From assembly GCF_013122565.1 (NCBI RefSeq), contig NZ_CP053258.1: a DNA stretch of 64,000 bases, one strand, 5' to 3'. Numbering within the stretch: position 1 is the stretch's first letter; every line of letters starts with the position of its first letter. Below are positions 14,278-55,620 of this stretch, one piece after another. The notes under the pieces were generated by a model. The model saw only the letters and a program-made list of their open reading frames with translations. It ran no database searches and was not told the origin of the DNA. The stretch is from Escherichia coli (GTDB lineage: Bacteria; Pseudomonadota; Gammaproteobacteria; Enterobacterales; Enterobacteriaceae). Made by a program: the position numbers and the translations under genes.

Positions 14278-14970
14278 TTAGTTTAAGTTCACTTCTCTGA
14301 CCGGGGTTACTGAACCATAATCATTAACGGTCTGAAATTTCAGCTTTCCCTGCACTCCTGAGGGTAAGGGAATTTGTGAATTAACTCTGGGTGCAGCCAT
14401 AGCATTCCCCAACTTTTGGCTGCCCACTTGTAAGTTAACCAGGGTGACATAAAAAGGTGATGGATTATGAACATTGATATAGTTACCGGATCGCGAAAAC
14501 TTGAGTGTGTCCGGCGCTTCTGCGGGTAATTCTTGTAATTGAATTGGACGGAGAAATAACTTCATGCGCGATAAAATCGCCAGTTGCAAAACATTCCTGC
14601 CGTTCAATGCATTTTTATCTACCGAAGGGATCGTCTTAACATTCATCCAGAACAGAGACTCACGATCTGCCGCCAGCGGTGGACCGGTGTAAATAATACG
14701 CAAAGTATTTTCGCTTTTGGGTTCACTAACAAACAGTGGAGGTGTAATGATGAATGACTTTTCTTTTACACCGCTGCTGTTTTCAATCCACGAATTGACC
14801 AGAAAGCGCTCATTGGTATGGCTATTTCTAATCCATACCGCAGTCTGTTTAGCATCAGCGGGATAAATAATACGCGTGGCACCTAATGCGATCCCTCCGG
14901 CAGCATGGGCGCTGGCCGAAATGATTAAATAAAATATAATGAGCATCAATAACTTTATTTTAGTCATCAT
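14278..14970 (-). CDS. sfmC: Periplasmic fimbrial chaperone SfmC (230 aa)
   Basis: [23 protein letters not shown] signal peptide; PapD-like chaperone motifs. Confidence 0.9.
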
Positions 14971-15189
14971 AGTTAATACGCCTTGTGTATTCCTGACGGC
15001 AAAAATAAGAAATATAAAGAAATGATTGCTTTGGTTTCTTACAACACATCATTCCCTTTTCATTTAATAAAGCGGCATGATACAAAGTGAACATGATTTC
15101 GATTTACATTGCCACCATACCGCTTCAGACAACCGGTACATTACTTTGTTATAAGACGTGGTATATAATTCAAAACAACGTGGTTTTGA

Positions 15190-15732
15190 TTATTCGTATC
15201 TCATAATAAAAGTCGCGTCAGCATTTGCTTGCCCTGCTGATGCACTTGTACCGGTGCCTTTATAACGTGCAGAAAAATGAAGAACGTTGGTCCCGGGGAT
15301 CAAGTTCTGGTTGGTTGAGAAGCTATTCCCATCAGGTTTGAGAATTGCGGATGTATTATCAAGTATTTCAATACCGACACCCGTTGCTGTTGTTGTATTG
15401 GTACTGGATGCAATGGCCAATAAATTATCATTGATTGCATCAGCCTGACCAGAAAATGCAACGGCAGCATTAGCGGCAACAACAGGATCGCAGTCGTTCA
15501 ACTGTATAGTGAATGGAATTAATGCAGAGGTATTACCAACAGCATTGAAAATATCGGTACGATATTGACCGAGTGTGACAACCTGGTCTGCCGAGTCAGT
15601 ATTCACTGAACAGGCAGCATTCACCAGTTCGCCTTCAAAGTGAATTGTACCGCCATCTACAACGGCAGCATAACTACCCGTAGCGGCGAATAGTGCGGCA
15701 GCCAGCGCAGACGAAATAAATCTTAATTTCAT
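15190..15732 (-). CDS. sfmA: Type-1-like fimbrial major subunit SfmA (180 aa)
   Basis: ATG at 15732 ([22 protein letters not shown]...); C-terminal ...[13 protein letters not shown]-track start at 15765 is an upstream extension. Confidence 0.88.
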
Positions 15733-16210
15733 ATATATTCCTTCAATCTCATTTATCGACTCCACATCCGTATATAACCGATTACTTTATTTAAGACACT
15801 GATAGTAGTAAATTCCTTTTTATCCTCTAAGAATGTCTTAATTGAAAATATGCACTCTATTCTAAAAAATAGAGAGCCCCGTTAGATGAATACTTCCGCG
15901 CAAAATATATTCAACACAAATATAGACCTGAAGCGGTAAATTACCAGGCTGAAAATTCTTTTTATATTGTCAGGTATTTCTTAAATTATCTTAATCCTTT
16001 GACAAGGAAATAAGTCAGTTCCAGATTTACAACGCCATCATGGACGAAAAATGAAGCTTTCAATCTCAGCGACCTCAGCGACGGTGCGCCTAACCTTCGC
16101 AAGAGGCGCTTCACGCGATAAATCTGAAACGAAACCTGACAGCGCGCCCCGCTTCTGACAAAATAGGCGCATCCCCTTCGACCTACGTAACAGATGGAAT
16201 CCTCTCTCTG

Positions 16211-25545: not shown

Positions 25546-27213
25546 TTATTGCAAACGTTCTAATAAACGAGCCAGTTTTTTATTGCCGCCGGCGACTGGC
25601 GACCATTGGTAATGCACAACCGGTTTGCTGGCGCTTTGTAGCTCCAGCGCAAAACTGCGTAATCCGATGTTAATCACGGCGACGTTTTCCAGTAATGACG
25701 GTGTGTGTTGCTGTGCGGCAGGCGAGAGCGGATGAATTAACGCTGCCGCCAGCAAGGTGGCTTCCGGTAGCGAACTCACGACCGCAATCCCCGCATCTTC
25801 CAGCGTGGCGATTTGCTGCGAGCGGCATTGCGGGTCACGTTCGGTACCTGTCACCGTGGCAATGGCGTACAGCGGTTGGCTGTCTGAACGCGCGGCACAG
25901 GCTTTTTGCCAGGCGCTCACCAGCGAGGCGGCAGGATCGGCGGTCGCACCGAAGCCAATCACGACATCAAGCAGCAGCACACGCACTTGCGGTTTAGCGC
26001 CGAGATCGGCAATTAACTGGTTGCGTAAGGTTGGGTCGATCATCGGATGGGGACGCCCGACTGTGTAGAAATCATCGCCGAGGTCAATAATCTGGTGACC
26101 ATCGGCGTCGAGCATCATGCCGTGATGATGGGCATCATCGGCTTCCACGCCAAGGTGTCCGGCAAGTAATCCCGCCGCTTCGGCAGCCAGCGTACCGCCG
26201 GTATACAAACCGCAAATAAATCCGCTGCTGGCAGGCGTTATCGCGTTACGTCGCGCCGTAACGCGTGAAAGCAGGCAAGCCAGGCGTGCGGCCTCATCCA
26301 GCGAGGAGGCAAACCAGACATTCTCGTCGCGGGCCACCGCCGGGGTATAACCTAAAAACAGCGCCACCGTCGGTTTGCCGGTTGCTTTCATGGCATTAAC
26401 AATTTTCAGACGCACAGCTTCGGCAGGTGGTTTTGAAACAAATGCCAGCACTTCGCTTTTCTCGTCTGCACTGAGCATTTCCAGCGCTGTTAGCGCACTG
26501 ATGCCGCCCACTTCACGGCTGAGGTCGCGGCCGCCAAGGCCAATCGCGTGAGTAATTCCCTCCCCTGCCAGCGCAATCTGCGAGCACAGCTCCTGAATCC
26601 CAGTACCGGAAGCGCCAATGACGCCAATGTTGCCTTCCGGCATCACGTTAGCAAAAGCCAGCGGCGTGCCGGCAATCATCGACGTACCGCAGTCCGGCCC
26701 CATCACCAGCAAGCCTTTTTCCCGCGCGCGGGTTTTAAGTTGGATTTCATCTTCCAGCGTGACGTTATCGGAGAACATCATCACGTTGAGGTTGCGATCC
26801 AGCGCCTGCTTCGCCAGCTCCGCCGCATACTCGCCAGCCACTGAAATCAGCGCCAGACTGGCGTCGGGTAATTTCTGACAGGCACTGTCCCAGCGACGCA
26901 CCTGCGTCAACGCCTGGCTGCTGCCTGACCCCTGCGCCAGTTGTTTTAGCGCCTCTTCAAGCTGCTGCATAATCGCCTGCGCGATCCCCGCATCCGCCGC
27001 TTCGCTACGAATTGCCACGCAAATATCGTTCGGCGTGGCGTTATTAAAATCGTCATGCCAGAAACCTGTGGTATCTAATAACGCTTTATTGGCGGGCGTA
27101 CCCATCATTACGGAAACATCATCAACATTTTCTGATTCGCTGAGTTTTCGTGAAATAATCATTAAACTGACCGAATCCTGAAAACACCCTTTTTTAATAA
27201 AGGCGTGGATCAT
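25546..27213 (-). CDS. fdrA: Acyl-CoA synthetase-like (CoA-binding/ligase-CoA domain) protein FdrA (555 aa)
   Basis: Succinyl-CoA-synthetase-alpha-like architecture; first gene of the operon. Confidence 0.88.
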   Translation of the reverse strand: MIHAFIKKGCFQDSVSLMIISRKLSESENVDDVSVMMGTPANKALLDTTGFWHDDFNNATPNDICVAIRSEAADAGIAQAIMQQLEEALKQLAQGSGSSQALTQVRRWDSACQKLPDASLALISVAGEYAAELAKQALDRNLNVMMFSDNVTLEDEIQLKTRAREKGLLVMGPDCGTSMIAGTPLAFANVMPEGNIGVIGASGTGIQELCSQIALAGEGITHAIGLGGRDLSREVGGISALTALEMLSADEKSEVLAFVSKPPAEAVRLKIVNAMKATGKPTVALFLGYTPAVARDENVWFASSLDEAARLACLLSRVTARRNAITPASSGFICGLYTGGTLAAEAAGLLAGHLGVEADDAHHHGMMLDADGHQIIDLGDDFYTVGRPHPMIDPTLRNQLIADLGAKPQVRVLLLDVVIGFGATADPAASLVSAWQKACAARSDSQPLYAIATVTGTERDPQCRSQQIATLEDAGIAVVSSLPEATLLAAALIHPLSPAAQQHTPSLLENVAVINIGLRSFALELQSASKPVVHYQWSPVAGGNKKLARLLERLQ

Positions 27214-27528
27214 AACAACTCCTTAAAAATTGCACCCATGGCAATTGCACGAGCAGTGTTAATGTGGCGATTACGGTATCGATGACAACGGGTAAATAAG
27301 GTGATGAATATCACACAGGGATTATTAACAAAAGAATTCAAATAACCGTCAGGCTATTACGCGTTATTTTTTAATAAGCATGGTTGTTTTAAAAACAGGT
27401 TAAAAGCGCGAAGATTATCAAATAAATTCTAACTATATTTTTTTGCCTGTCTGGATCACATAATCCAGATATTTTCCCTGTATGTTAATTGCAGTCATGC
27501 TTCACACCGTCGTTAAAAAGGAAGACAG

Positions 27529-28578
27529 ATGAAAATCAGTCGGGAAACACTCCACCAGCTAATCGAGAATAAACTCTGCCAGGCTGGGTTAAAACGTGAG
27601 CACGCTGCAACCGTGGCTGAAGTATTGGTTTACGCCGATGCCAGAGGGATCCACTCTCATGGCGCGGTGCGCGTTGAATACTACGCAGAACGCATTTCAA
27701 AAGGCGGCACCAACCGCGAACCGGAATTTCGTCTTGAAGAAACCGGGCCGTGTTCGGCAATTTTACATGCCGACAATGCCGCCGGACAGGTCGCGGCGAA
27801 AATGGGTATGGAACATGCCATCAAAACCGCCCAGCAAAATGGCGTTGCGGTGGTCGGTATCAGCCGGATGGGTCACAGCGGCGCAATCTCTTATTTTGTG
27901 CAGCAGGCCGCCCGCGCCGGATTAATTGGCATTTCGATGTGTCAGTCCGATCCGATGGTGGTGCCGTTTGGCGGCGCGGAAATTTACTACGGTACTAACC
28001 CACTGGCCTTTGCCGCGCCGGGAGAAGGCAACGAGATCCTTACCTTTGATATGGCGACTACCGTACAGGCATGGGGAAAAGTGCTCGATGCCCGCTCGCG
28101 TAATATGTCTATCCCGGATACCTGGGCGGTCGATAAAAACGGTGCACCAACAACCGATCCGTTCGCGGTACATGCTCTGCTCCCCGCCGCCGGGCCGAAA
28201 GGGTATGGCCTGATGATGATGATTGACGTCCTCTCAGGCGTCTTACTCGGCTTACCGTTCGGGCGACAGGTTAGTTCGATGTATGACGATTTACACGCAG
28301 GGCGTAATTTGGGGCAATTACATATAGTTATTAATCCGAACTTTTTCTCCTCCAGCGAATTATTCCGTCAACATCTTAGCCAGACCATGCGCGAATTAAA
28401 TGCCATTACCCCCGCGCCCGGTTTTAATCAGGTTTATTATCCCGGACAGGATCAGGATATTAAACAACGCAAAGCCGCCGTCGAAGGCATCGAAATTGTT
28501 GATGATATTTACCAGTATTTAATTTCCGACGCGCTTTATAACACGTCATACGAAACGAAAAATCCCTTTGCGCAATAA
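27529..28578 (+). CDS. allD: Ureidoglycolate dehydrogenase AllD (349 aa)
   Basis: Ldh_2-family sequence; first gene of allDC-allE. Confidence 0.93.
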   Translation: MKISRETLHQLIENKLCQAGLKREHAATVAEVLVYADARGIHSHGAVRVEYYAERISKGGTNREPEFRLEETGPCSAILHADNAAGQVAAKMGMEHAIKTAQQNGVAVVGISRMGHSGAISYFVQQAARAGLIGISMCQSDPMVVPFGGAEIYYGTNPLAFAAPGEGNEILTFDMATTVQAWGKVLDARSRNMSIPDTWAVDKNGAPTTDPFAVHALLPAAGPKGYGLMMMIDVLSGVLLGLPFGRQVSSMYDDLHAGRNLGQLHIVINPNFFSSSELFRQHLSQTMRELNAITPAPGFNQVYYPGQDQDIKQRKAAVEGIEIVDDIYQYLISDALYNTSYETKNPFAQ

Positions 28579-36260: not shown

Positions 36261-36429
36261 AAATCCCTCTTAATTTCACGTATCGAATAACGTTGTTTTA
36301 ATCTAGCTATGAGGAACAAATAAAATAAAAATATTATTTTTAATACTGAAGCAACATCTTTGGCTGCTTTCTTTTTTTAATATTGCTGGCCGATTCATTT
36401 TCTGATATCGGCCATTTTTATTGCGGGTA

Positions 36430-52449: not shown

Positions 52450-52904
52450 TGGAGTTAATGGTCGTTCATCCACATATTTTCTGGCTCAGTCTCGGCGGGT
52501 TGCTGCTGGCAGCCGAGATGCTGGGCGGAAATGGTTATTTGTTGTGGAGCGGCGTGGCAGCGGTGATTACCGGCCTGGTGGTCTGGCTGGTGCCGCTGGG
52601 TTGGGAGTGGCAAGGGGTGATGTTTGCCATCCTGACGCTGCTCGCCGCCTGGCTGTGGTGGAAATGGTTGTCGCGGCGGGTGCGCGAACAAAAGCACAGC
52701 GACAGTCATTTAAACCAGCGCGGGCAGCAGCTGATTGGCCGACGTTTTGTGCTGGAATCTCCACTGGTCAACGGGCGCGGTCATATGCGCGTCGGCGACA
52801 GTTCATGGCCTGTCAGCGCCAGCGAGGATCTCGGTGCAGGTACGCATGTTGAAGTAATTGCGATAGAAGGGATAACGCTGATCATCCGTGCGGCCATCGC
52901 CTGA
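52446..52904 (+). CDS. ybbJ: NfeD-like membrane protein YbbJ (152 aa)
   Basis: ATGA overlap with qmcA stop; hydrophobic N-terminus plus OB-fold-like C-terminus. Confidence 0.9.
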
Positions 52905-53090
52905 TGCGACGCTGACGCGTCTTATCATGCCTACAAAATATGCCCGAATCGTAGGCCGGATAAGGCGTTTACGCAGCATCCGGCGGTTATGCACCGACGC
53001 CTTATGCGACGCGGGCGCGTCTTATCACGCCTACAAATCTGTGCCCGAATCGTAGGCCGGATAAGGCGCTTGCGCCGCATCCGGCATATA
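52905..53090. repeat. BIME cluster (about four REP units) immediately after ybbJ
   Basis: Repeated gatgcgacgc...gcgtcttatca(t/c)gcctacaaa and cgtaggccggataaggcg...gcatccggc units. Confidence 0.85.
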
Positions 53091-53107
53091 GCCGAGTATA
53101 GGCAAAA

Positions 53108-53470
53108 TTACTCTTCCCGGCCTTTACTCATACTTTTTTGGTCTTCATCCGGATAGTGTTTTTTTAGATATTCCAGGACGTTTTTATTGACCTTGTGTTG
53201 CGTATACACCCACCCTTTCCAGTAATCAGGCTGGTCCAGGTAAACTTCTGGCGGAATGGTGAAATCAGAAAGCGTTAACCATTCGGCTAACAGATCGGGG
53301 TTTCGTTTCTGGATCAACTGCAACAGCATAATCAGCGACATGGCAGAGGCAGGAGCCGTACTATCGCCGCTTAAATACTTCCACACTGTCGACCGGTTCG
53401 AACGAAAAAGGATCGGTAGCAATGCCCGGTCCAGATTCATTTCATTAAAAATCTTCTCAAATTCATTCAT
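53108..53470 (-). CDS. Hypothetical 120-aa protein, possible HTH DNA-binding protein (accessory)
   Basis: ORF with SD AGGA 9 nt upstream; segment RSNRSTVWKYLSG resembles an HTH recognition helix (weak, by eye); divergent from the downstream operon. Confidence 0.6.
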   Translation of the reverse strand: MNEFEKIFNEMNLDRALLPILFRSNRSTVWKYLSGDSTAPASAMSLIMLLQLIQKRNPDLLAEWLTLSDFTIPPEVYLDQPDYWKGWVYTQHKVNKNVLEYLKKHYPDEDQKSMSKGREE

Positions 53471-53836
53471 TTAAATTTTCCTGCCTGGCGTAAACCTCTT
53501 AAAAATTGAGATTTATCAAAGAAACGCATTTTAGCACACATCAGGAACCGCTTCACGTTTAGTCCAGAAACAGAATTTATTTCGCTTATCAAAACAAGTC
53601 TTTACTCTTTTTTACATTGAAAGAGCACGAAATGATTTCCTTTTTTATTTATAAAAGAAACACTTTTTGTTTCTTATTGGTGGTGTTTACGCTTACACCA
53701 AACAAAAATGCGCTTTACATCACACAAATGGCGGCGTAGATTTCGATCAAATTGCAACGTAGTTTATTTCTTAAAACAATATTATTAGTTTCTTATAGAA
53801 ACATTAATGCGACTTATTTTGATCGAGAGAAAATGA

Positions 53837-54853
53837 ATGAAAACTGTAAACGTAGCTTTACTGGCACTCATAATTTCAGCAACATCCAGCCCTGTTGTTT
53901 TAGCTGGTGATACCATTGAAGCGGCGGCAACAGAGCTTTCAGCCATTAACTCGGGCATGTCGCAATCGGAGATTGAGCAGAAGATTACCCGCTTTTTAGA
54001 ACGCACCGACAACAGCCCCGCTGCATATACCTATTTGACTGAACATCACTACATCCCTTCTGAAACACCTGATACCACTCAGACTCCCCCTGTCCAGACA
54101 GATCCTGACGCAGGACAAAAAACCGTTGCCGCTACAGGTGATGTACAGACAACCGCCCGTTATCAGAGCATGATCAACGCCCGACAGTCTGCGGTAACTG
54201 ATGCCCAGCAAACGCAAATTACAGAGCAACAGGCGCAGATCGTAGCCACACAAAAAACGCTCGCCGCGACTGGAGATACGCAAAATACTGCGCATTATCA
54301 GGAGATGATTAATGCCAGACTGGCGGCTCAAAATGAGGCTAATCAGCGCACTACCACGGAACAAGGGCAGAAAATGAATGCACTGACAACCGATGTGGCA
54401 GCACAACAGCAAAAAGAAAGGGCTCAATACGATAAACAAATGCAAAGTCTGGCGCAGAAGTCTGTCCAGGCACATGAGCAAATTGAAAGTCTGAGACAAG
54501 ATTCCGCACAAACGCAGCAACAGTTAACCAACACGCAAAAACGGGTCGCAGATAACAGCCAACAAATTAACACGCTCAATAACCATTTCGATTCTCTGAA
54601 AAACGAAGTTGAGGACAATCGTAAAGAAGCCAATGCGGGAACTGCATCTGCCATCGCTATCGCCTCACAACCACAGGTGAAAACCGGTGACTTGATGATG
54701 GTGTCAGCGGGAGCGGGAACGTTCAACGGTGAATCTGCGGTGTCTGTAGGAACATCTTTTAATGCCGGAACGCATACGGTACTTAAAGCAGGTATTTCTG
54801 CGGATACACAATCTGATTTCGGTGCGGGTGTCGGCGTGGGATATTCGTTCTAA
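53837..54853 (+). CDS. Short trimeric-autotransporter-like outer-membrane protein (338 aa)
   Basis: Signal peptide MKTVNVALLALIISATSSPVVLA; Q/T-rich coiled-coil passenger with two imperfect 45-aa tandem repeats; C-terminal ~70 aa match the YadA-type anchor (AGTASAIAIASQPQ ... GAGVGVGYSF). Confidence 0.8.
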   Translation: MKTVNVALLALIISATSSPVVLAGDTIEAAATELSAINSGMSQSEIEQKITRFLERTDNSPAAYTYLTEHHYIPSETPDTTQTPPVQTDPDAGQKTVAATGDVQTTARYQSMINARQSAVTDAQQTQITEQQAQIVATQKTLAATGDTQNTAHYQEMINARLAAQNEANQRTTTEQGQKMNALTTDVAAQQQKERAQYDKQMQSLAQKSVQAHEQIESLRQDSAQTQQQLTNTQKRVADNSQQINTLNNHFDSLKNEVEDNRKEANAGTASAIAIASQPQVKTGDLMMVSAGAGTFNGESAVSVGTSFNAGTHTVLKAGISADTQSDFGAGVGVGYSF

Positions 54854-54906: not shown

Positions 54907-55329
54907 ATGATGAATAGCTCCATTAAATCGTTTTCCCTGCTGGCGGTTATATTACTGGCTGGCTGTAGTTCACCCACTTCCCGCATCGCAGATTGCCAGG
55001 CGCAGGGCGTCAGTCATGACACCTGTTATCTCGCAGAACAGCAGCGTCAGACGGCTATTTTAAGTGCATCCGAGGCGCAGGCATTTAAAAATGCAGAAGC
55101 CGCACAACATGCCCAGGCGGCAAAGAAAGCCATTTATAAAGGATTTGGCGTCACCTTCAGAATGAGCAGTAAGGACTTTGCTTATCTCAATGATTCATTA
55201 TGTGCCATAGATGAGGATAATGCCGATGCCACGGTTTATCAGTCGGGTCTGTATAACGTCATTGTTTATCATCACACAGGAAAAATCGCCTTAATGAAAG
55301 AAGGCCAGTTTGTGGGCTATTTAAAATGA
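54907..55329 (+). CDS. Hypothetical lipoprotein (140 aa)
   Basis: Signal peptide with lipobox LLAGC; four Cys in the mature part. Confidence 0.75.
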   Translation: MMNSSIKSFSLLAVILLAGCSSPTSRIADCQAQGVSHDTCYLAEQQRQTAILSASEAQAFKNAEAAQHAQAAKKAIYKGFGVTFRMSSKDFAYLNDSLCAIDEDNADATVYQSGLYNVIVYHHTGKIALMKEGQFVGYLK

Positions 55330-55532
55330 AGGAGCAAAGGAAAATACCCCTGACGCACATTATGATTATCGGTGCGTTTATTTTTGCCTTCTTGCAAGTG
55401 GTGTTATTAGCCTCCCTGGTTCACGCTGTGAATGTTAACAACGAAATCCAGGAAGGCTTATTTCAGTCGGGGCGCATTATGGTAGAAAGTTTGCAGCATA
55501 TTCTTTCGGTGCAAACGGGGATTAATGGGTAA
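55326..55532 (+). CDS. Hypothetical small membrane protein (68 aa)
   Basis: ATGA overlap with upstream stop; one TM helix IMIIGAFIFAFLQVVLLASLVHAV; no independent SD. Confidence 0.5.
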   Translation: MKEQRKIPLTHIMIIGAFIFAFLQVVLLASLVHAVNVNNEIQEGLFQSGRIMVESLQHILSVQTGING

Positions 55533-55620
55533 GGATACCGTTACCATTTCCAGAGCAATAGTCACCAGCGTAATTTTCTGGCACAGTTCAGGGTTCTGAA
55601 TATTCGGCTAAGGAGTGGCC

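Follow-up and report, generated by a model that had tools for sequence, protein, structure and literature searches.

Between a small leftward gene and a rightward surface-protein gene, the stretch of Escherichia coli DNA analysed here (64,000 nucleotides, referred to as the window) holds a conspicuously AT-rich gap, which raises the question of what controls the genes that diverge from it. A first-pass annotation had read this gap as typical of horizontally acquired, H-NS-silenced promoters with a local regulator, possibly the 120-aa product of the leftward gene. The gap and the genes beside it are located as follows:

53471-53836, no strand: divergent intergenic control region, 366 bp, AT-rich, GC 31.4%
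53108-53470, minus strand: gene of a 120-aa XRE/Cro-type helix-turn-helix protein, putative local regulator, orthologue of z0640
53837-54853, plus strand: trimeric autotransporter adhesin gene, 338 aa, orthologue of z0639 ('gmrA') / ECs0548
54907-55329, plus strand: 140-aa lipoprotein gene, orthologue of z0638, annotated as a lipoprotein in O157
55326-55532, plus strand: gene of a 68-aa membrane protein, taken from the list of open reading frames

The bounds given in the annotation are exact, the 120-aa ORF ending at 53470 on the minus strand and the 338-aa gene beginning at 53837 on the plus strand. A sliding-window GC scan, which the annotation had proposed as a check, sets the gap clearly apart from its surroundings (31.4% versus 52.0% for the window as a whole): it is the lowest-GC stretch of 366 bp in the 64 kb, and segments of that length with GC this low make up 0.11% of the total, every one of them overlapping the gap. 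Of the window's 20 intergenic gaps with a length of 100 bp or more, only one has a lower GC, and none of those longer than 200 bp does. The window has five other divergent promoter gaps, four at 35.6-39.6% GC and one at 54.5%; since most of them are only about 4-8 GC points higher, the gap does exceed ordinary promoter DNA in AT content, but moderately. The A/T tracts described by the annotation are also enriched, with 12 tracts of at least 4 nucleotides against 6.4 expected from composition (P = 0.015). Low GC is a property of the gap in other lineages as well, amounting to 29-37% in all members of alignment A3 and to 27-32% in the distant loci L025-L027, and gap length is 356-379 bp in nine loci of other lineages and 408 bp beside a 43%-identity homologue of the regulator. 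Further segments of the window at 30-34% GC lie at 9647-10224, 14844-16107, 27071-27555 and 36261-36429.

The locus is O-island 29 of EDL933, or S-loop43 of Sakai (E. coli O157:H7), whose genes appear in the literature as z0638, z0639 ('gmrA') and z0640 (PMC5826968), with ECs0548 listed as a 'Saa-like protein' in PMC2323221. When the published primers are placed on the O157 locus (L002), whose gap is 96.7% identical to that of the window, those for z0638 coincide exactly with the lipoprotein gene, those for gmrA with the adhesin gene and those for z0640 with the 120-aa gene; by the same mapping, the published gmrA deletion takes out exactly the YadA-anchor coding sequence and the z0640 deletion exactly the 120-aa ORF. 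The inserted genes, which encode the 120-aa ORF, the 338-aa YadA-anchor protein, the 140-aa lipoprotein, the 68-aa membrane protein and a 409-aa protein, are flanked by fetB-fetA, qmcA-ybbJ and cueR. The annotation rightly called the locus accessory: the gap sequence was found in 1413 of 5426 complete E. coli genomes, O157:H7 included, at 84-98% identity. Carriers reported by Yang et al. comprise O55:H7, neonatal-meningitis, avian-pathogenic and uropathogenic strains (PMC5826968 Table S4). The control of this region concerns an island with a reported link to motility that is present in about a quarter of complete E. coli genomes, O157:H7 among them. Both island and genes are already known; as far as the literature searched goes, the control logic, the regulator fold, the operator architecture and the regulator-adhesin linkage described here are new, and the search found nothing on the intergenic region, its promoters or a regulatory role of z0640.

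Several neighbouring elements were noted in passing. Pfam and NCBIfam gave no match for the 409-aa ORF at 55615-56844, which separates the 68-aa gene from cueR. O157:H7 lacks this ORF, and just 135 of the 5426 complete genomes have the 4.4-kb arrangement in full. At the left island edge, a REP cluster at 52865-53122, which corresponds to Rfam naRNA4 (best score 58.5 bits versus a gathering score of 59.5), occupies the DNA from ybbJ up to the 3' end of the regulator gene. Beyond cueR, at 57249-64000, are a type I secretion system (HlyD adaptor, permease/ATPase) and a giant BapA/SiiE-like adhesin gene, siiEA, which is a pseudogene in the O157:H7 record. As this secretion system and siiEA lie on the far side of cueR, two unrelated adhesin systems flank cueR.

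The rightward gene, an 'OMP gene' in the annotation, can be specified as a trimeric autotransporter: its 338-aa product matches Pfam YadA_anchor at 45.6 bits (cut-off 22.7), as well as the PDB anchors of AtaA and Hia. Small genes equivalent to the downstream 140-aa/68-aa pair also follow the adhesin gene in other genera, and the 140-aa lipoprotein gave no sequence match to solved structures at E <= 0.09. The O157:H7 orthologue z0639 (L002 6367-7383) was published as 'GmrA, transcriptional activator of fliA' (PMC5826968). Reading of its sequence shows a Sec-type signal at the N-terminus of GmrA (MKTVNVALLALIISATSSPVVLA/GD), and the protein further comprises a coiled-coil stalk and the YadA anchor, a set of features that suits a cytoplasmic DNA-binding role poorly. 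Its only 'DNA-related' family match is a coiled-coil match to SMC far below threshold (20.9 bits versus a cut-off of 567), and the 'putative DNA-binding domain' described for it (PMC5826968) may perhaps be a coiled-coil match of this SMC kind. The length of the adhesin is highly polymorphic within E. coli, at 338, 579 or about 703-709 aa, and its stalk contains tandem repeats; the regulator protein is near-invariant (L018 3861-5600; L020 3849-5978; L019 about 3866-5282). In L018, L019 and L020, the adhesin start given by RefSeq is internal, lying 600-1060 bp beyond the conserved start adjacent to the gap.

The leftward 120-aa protein belongs to a tiny family, with 23 cluster representatives among 1.84 billion proteins in an exhaustive profile search. 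The window protein itself reaches only the HTH part of MqsA_antitoxin in Pfam, below the cut-off (E = 0.08, 13.5 bits, cut-off 30), and has no NCBIfam or PHROGs match; other family members match MqsA_antitoxin, Xre-like-HTH, HTH_3 and HTH_26 at E = 2.4e-5 to 2.9e-4. A profile search of the family against PDB sequences returned nothing relevant. AlphaFold, run on the 23-sequence alignment, gave an all-helical model (pLDDT 90.9) with a five-helix bundle that contains a helix-turn-helix and is superposable on known XRE members, followed by a helical C-terminal extension of about 60 residues; an earlier model from a shallow 14-sequence alignment was dropped (pLDDT 60.6, meaningless fold matches). 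The protein can be assigned confidently to the XRE/Cro-type helix-turn-helix class by its modelled fold and remote homology, the only ties to that class, and sequence-specific DNA binding is its putative activity. Since no partner toxin gene is present beside it, a toxin-antitoxin pair was ruled out.

Neighbourhoods of twelve family members were inspected, which yielded 13 distinct loci with upstream sequence; a scan of species-representative genomes had given only 4 loci, and lineage diversity came from look-ups of exact proteins. In 12 of the 13 loci, down to 32% identity, the gene transcribed away from the regulator gene is a YadA-anchor gene or encodes another large surface protein. The neighbour is a YadA-anchor gene in 10 loci, which include Pseudocitrobacter, the E. 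coli-like locus L008, metagenomic enterobacteria and the 44%-, 43%- and 32%-identity homologues, which lie at other chromosomal sites, and the divergent neighbour in Symbiopectobacterium (L006) and in L010 encodes a protein without Pfam match. The exception is L023, a 45%-identity homologue whose gene does not stand beside an adhesin gene; the contig of L024 is too short for its neighbour to be judged. Cassette sites differ by lineage (ybbJ/cueR, fetA/qmcA, cnoX/qmcA, ribE/MFS transporter and others). Among L003-L005, L010, L012, L009, L021 and L025-L027, the first three of these sites are junctions within one neighbourhood, and unrelated sites are the one between ribE and the MFS transporter and one beside a RES-Xre toxin-antitoxin pair; mobility genes are absent from the cassette's surroundings in these loci. 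In L008 (GCA_014857685.1, 97.4% identical), the adhesin, qmcA, ybbJ, fetA and T1SS adaptor genes are split into short ORFs and an IS fragment adjoins the regulator gene, which suggests either a pseudogene-rich genome or an error-rich assembly.

An alignment of 15 gap sequences from several genera shows that most of the gap is barely alignable, while discrete blocks are invariant. Some of these blocks coincide with predicted promoter and leader elements:

53528-53536, minus strand: extended -10 element of the regulator gene, TGcTAAAAT; predicted start at about 53521, leader about 50 nt
53714-53742, plus strand: sigma-70 promoter of the adhesin operon, TTTACA-17 bp-TAGATT; predicted start at about 53749, leader about 88 nt
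53811-53836, plus strand: conserved leader and ribosome-binding block of 26 nt, TTATTTTnAAnGAGAAAnnAAnnA before the ATG, defined by conserved columns

The TG and the TA..AT of the extended -10 element are invariant in the 15 gaps (columns A88, T89, T92, A93, C95 and A96), and ATTTTAnCA of the regulator promoter is kept even in the distant loci L025 and L026. The adhesin promoter, the only promoter-like match of a consensus scan, lies within the blocks GCTTTAC.T.ACA and GCGTA..TT, which are invariant in the same 15 gaps, and the leader and ribosome-binding block is almost unchanged in the 43%-identity locus L021. Conserved elements are thus found in both directions, as expected of divergent sigma-70 promoters, although both start sites, at about 53521 (minus) and 53749 (plus), are predictions. 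Published data come from the 96.7%-identical O157:H7 locus, where RNA-seq and qRT-PCR revealed transcripts in both directions in LB and DMEM (PMC5826968). By RNA-seq, z0640, gmrA and z0638 reached 43.5, 96 and 20 RPKM in DMEM, and all three were at 0 RPKM after 3 h on HeLa cells (PMC5826968 Table S3). The presence of the three transcripts in DMEM and their joint loss on host-cell contact show that both promoters are active and co-regulated. Island expression also varies with temperature, pH and osmolarity, falling at 30 C and at high osmolarity (PMC5826968). The literature search found no binding, footprint or start-site data for the gap.

Around these promoters, the gap contains a set of GAAAC repeats with an operator-like arrangement:

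53520-53525, plus strand: AGAAAC half-site over the predicted regulator start, candidate autoregulatory site; in 14 of 15 gaps, columns A82-C85 invariant
53545-53561, no strand: operator-like 17-bp palindrome with 2 mismatches, in 22-bp register with 53567-53583
53567-53583, no strand: operator-like GAAAC-N7-ATTTC with 1 mismatch; half-site at 53567 in 14 of 15 gaps
53655-53675, no strand: perfect palindrome AAGAAACA-N5-TGTTTCTT, core GAAAC-N7-GTTTC at 53657-53673
53754-53770, no strand: degenerate operator GCAAC-N7-ATTTC with 2 mismatches, +6 to +22 of the adhesin promoter
53788-53802, no strand: perfect GTTTC-N5-GAAAC, junction of two operators in 22-bp register, +40 to +54

The short palindrome cited by the annotation is thus present, at 53657-53673 and in the extended form given above. 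It lies at about -92 to -76 from the predicted adhesin start and is perfect in all Escherichia and in Symbiopectobacterium, with 1 mismatch in meta_L010. Counted from the adhesin promoter, one group of sites spans about -115 to -76 and the other +6 to +66. Several of the downstream operators are degenerate in E. coli, with 2-3 mismatches; at the position aligned to 53754, GAAAC is found in E. whittamii, all Pseudocitrobacter, meta_L009 and meta_L010, and the GAAAC at 53798 is common to all 15 gaps.

Each lineage carries 5-8 copies of GAAAC per gap versus about 1 expected, at conserved positions. Over 10 lineages, GAAAC-N7-GTTTC was seen 17 times (0.24 expected), GTTTC-N5-GAAAC 16 times (0.24 expected) and direct GAAAC repeats at N17 20 times (0.46 expected), counts that are not independent trials because the aligned gaps are homologous. 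Together, the N7, N5 and N17 spacings amount to 17-bp palindromes every 22 bp, that is, two helical turns, which places them on one face of the helix. Over-representation of 6-mers was discarded as evidence in its own right, being unconvincing: some 6-mer, mostly an A/T run, reaches 6 copies in 63% of shuffled sequences. The case for operators rests instead on positional conservation and spacing.

The repeats also change together with the regulator. GAAAC arrays adjoin genes for proteins with the recognition helix NRST(V/I)(W/H)KYL. Beside the 32%-identity homologue (helix PRNTIFNYL) GAAAC is absent, and five copies of GAACA are found, including AAGAACA-N5-TGTTCTT, which has the same architecture as the GAAAC palindrome with a half-site one base shorter. 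Likewise, beside the 44%-identity homologue (helix HRSTSHKWL) GAAAC is absent and three copies of GCAGAAA are present. These divergent motifs occupy the same place as the GAAAC repeats, although P-values for them are optimistic, as the motifs were picked after inspection. A motif that changes along with the recognition helix is what would be expected of a cassette-specific operator and not of a host global factor. The annotation's suggestion of a local regulator, possibly the 120-aa protein, therefore gains support from the adhesin pairing in 12 of 13 loci and from this co-variation.

Our preferred reading, which we consider reasonably probable, is that the gap comprises divergent promoters under the control of a local regulator dedicated to them, which is probably a repressor. 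Two back-to-back sigma-70 promoters would fire outward from the shared gap, and the phased palindromes would most likely be bound by the 120-aa XRE-type protein in dimeric or higher oligomeric form. Conservation is strongest at the sites over the regulator's own start and at those to either side of the adhesin promoter, which makes autoregulated repression the most likely mode: the protein is most likely a repressor of its own gene that also brackets the adhesin promoter, possibly with looping between site clusters. A CpxR-type direct repeat (see below) could add an input from host envelope stress, and the low GC of the gap makes it a likely target of H-NS as a further layer. We infer both the binder of each site and the sign of the regulation. 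With respect to the sign, deletion of z0640 did not reproduce the gmrA phenotype, and a gmrA clone without z0640 complemented deletion of the whole island (PMC5826968); by primer mapping, this clone begins at window position 53518. The two results together argue that the 120-aa protein is not an essential activator, the complementation part of the argument being weakened by plasmid copy number and possible read-through from the vector. Additionally, the regulator and adhesin transcripts change together, which is unlike a simple repressor-target pair unless both are autoregulated or a third factor dominates.

A second reading makes H-NS the main regulator: the xenogeneic AT-rich gap would be coated and silenced, and the 120-aa protein would be an anti-silencer or activator, or irrelevant. 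The GC of the gap, the lowest in the window and kept at 27-37% in all lineages, and the excess of A/T tracts favor this reading, as do the accessory distribution and the presence of the cassette at different sites in other genera; GC well below that of the host is thus combined with accessory occurrence. In addition, a sentence in PMC3966885 that cites an EhaG/UpaG study refers to H-NS as a reported repressor of uropathogenic E. coli autotransporter genes, and the lower expression at 30 C and high osmolarity is compatible with H-NS-type control. A scan of the gap for the H-NS high-affinity 10-mer gave two matches with 2 mismatches each, and the literature search found no H-NS occupancy or hns-mutant data for the locus. 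From composition, H-NS silencing of the gap is plausible. However, both divergent genes are transcribed in LB and DMEM, so the locus is regulated rather than silent and the term 'H-NS-silenced' overstates the case: what stands of the annotation's description is a divergent control region on a horizontally distributed island, and not its silence. Moreover, H-NS leaves unexplained the exact N7/N5/N17 spacing of half-sites and their co-variation with the regulator, and the z0640 deletion, which did not mimic loss of the adhesin gene, speaks against an essential anti-silencer role. As the main regulator, H-NS is therefore an unlikely candidate.

OmpR-family proteins use tandem direct repeats, and one such element is present in the gap:

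53601-53615, minus strand: direct repeat GTAAA-N5-GTAAA, candidate response-regulator site, perfect match to the CpxR/OmpR-family consensus

This element, which reads TTTAC-N5-TTTAC on the plus strand and lies at about -80 to -94 from the predicted regulator start, underlies a third reading, in which the conserved repeats are host CpxR/OmpR sites that link the adhesin to envelope stress or osmolarity and the local protein is minor. A tandem GTAAA-N5-6-GTAAA near a promoter is the arrangement expected of a CpxR-type site, and the element matches the CpxR motif as quoted in PMC9600279. It is the single match in the 64-kb window (0.15 expected). The aligned position retains it in 12 of 15 gaps with no more than 1 mismatch, and the distant locus L025, whose other repeats differ, has a perfect copy; the sensitivity of island expression to pH and osmolarity points in the same direction. 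Nonetheless, CpxR/OmpR would account for one element only, as the GAAAC palindromes are inverted and not tandem direct repeats. The box is absent in E. whittamii, Symbiopectobacterium, meta_L009, L021 and L026, and the match was picked out on inspection, when many other consensus sequences could equally have been matched. A genome-wide CpxR-motif screen gave more than 10,000 putative sites (PMC9600279), which makes similarity to the motif weak evidence by itself. Overall, we consider it quite improbable that these host regulators account for the conserved repeats.

A fourth reading, in which the gap encodes a small RNA, a small protein or a structured leader such as a riboswitch or thermometer and the regulation is carried by this element, draws on the long predicted leader of about 88 nt with its conserved 3' part, on GTTTC/GAAAC repeats that could pair as short hairpins, and on the temperature dependence of expression. 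It is very doubtful, given that both predicted leaders fold no better than shuffled sequence (z = 0.09 and 0.05) and that the best Rfam match in the gap, STnc370, scores 24.9 bits against a gathering score of 54 (E = 1.4). The Rfam scan found only the REP/naRNA4 element left of the regulator gene and nothing near threshold in the gap. ORFs of 40-41 aa within the gap were rejected, as they sit in poorly aligned segments with indels of many lengths.

Finally, a phase-variation switch, either Dam-dependent as in pap and agn43 or an invertible segment as in fimS, can practically be dismissed. In its favor are the adhesin target, the GATC pair at 53745 and 53821, which lies in a 9-nt inverted repeat, and an 11-nt perfect inverted repeat flanking the gap (53462-53472 / 53831-53841). 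However, O157:H7, L019, L020 and Escherichia sp. E1V33 have neither GATC site and E. whittamii has only one, the 11-nt repeat consists of ATGAATGAA at each of the two gene starts and is confined to Escherichia, and the island has no recombinase gene.

Control by the cassette's own regulator is the reading that we carry forward: a cassette-borne XRE-type protein probably sets island expression on defined operators. The locus would then illustrate in compact form how an adhesin module moves together with a regulator and operators of its own. The candidate operators are concrete sites to mutate, a z0640 deletion strain exists, and the analysis prompts a second look at which protein of O-island 29 binds DNA.

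Among known systems, small XRE autoregulators (C-proteins, Aca1/Aca2, CI/Cro and HigA/MqsA) are similar in size to the 120-aa protein, at about 110-130 aa, and share with the system proposed here palindromic operators with half-sites about one turn apart, neighbouring operators about two turns apart, and one site on the protein's own promoter. The 120-aa protein differs from them in falling below all Pfam and NCBIfam cut-offs and in carrying the helical C-terminal extension of about 60 residues. It also lacks a toxin, restriction or anti-CRISPR partner, its target being an adhesin operon, and the operators in the gap extend across about 340 bp, flanking the target promoter on either side.

In position, the region is closer to the papI-papB, fim and agn43 regions, where a gap of about 360-400 bp likewise separates a small regulator gene from an adhesin operon; low GC and environmental control are shared with these regions and with H-NS-repressed autotransporters. 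Unlike pap, fim and agn43, the gap has no conserved GATC, invertible element or recombinase, and its regulator is of XRE type, not of the PapB/PapI, Lrp or OxyR type. In Salmonella, the trimeric autotransporter gene sadA is co-transcribed with the small lipoprotein gene sadB. This pairing of an adhesin with a small lipoprotein recurs here in reversed gene order, and we know of no local HTH regulator described for sadBA. O-island 29 with GmrA of EHEC O157:H7 (Yang et al., 2018, PMC5826968) is the identical island, with the same genes and, as noted above, a nearly identical gap. The region resembles the operator-promoter regions of small XRE autoregulators in its proposed function and the long divergent control regions of adhesin operons in its position.
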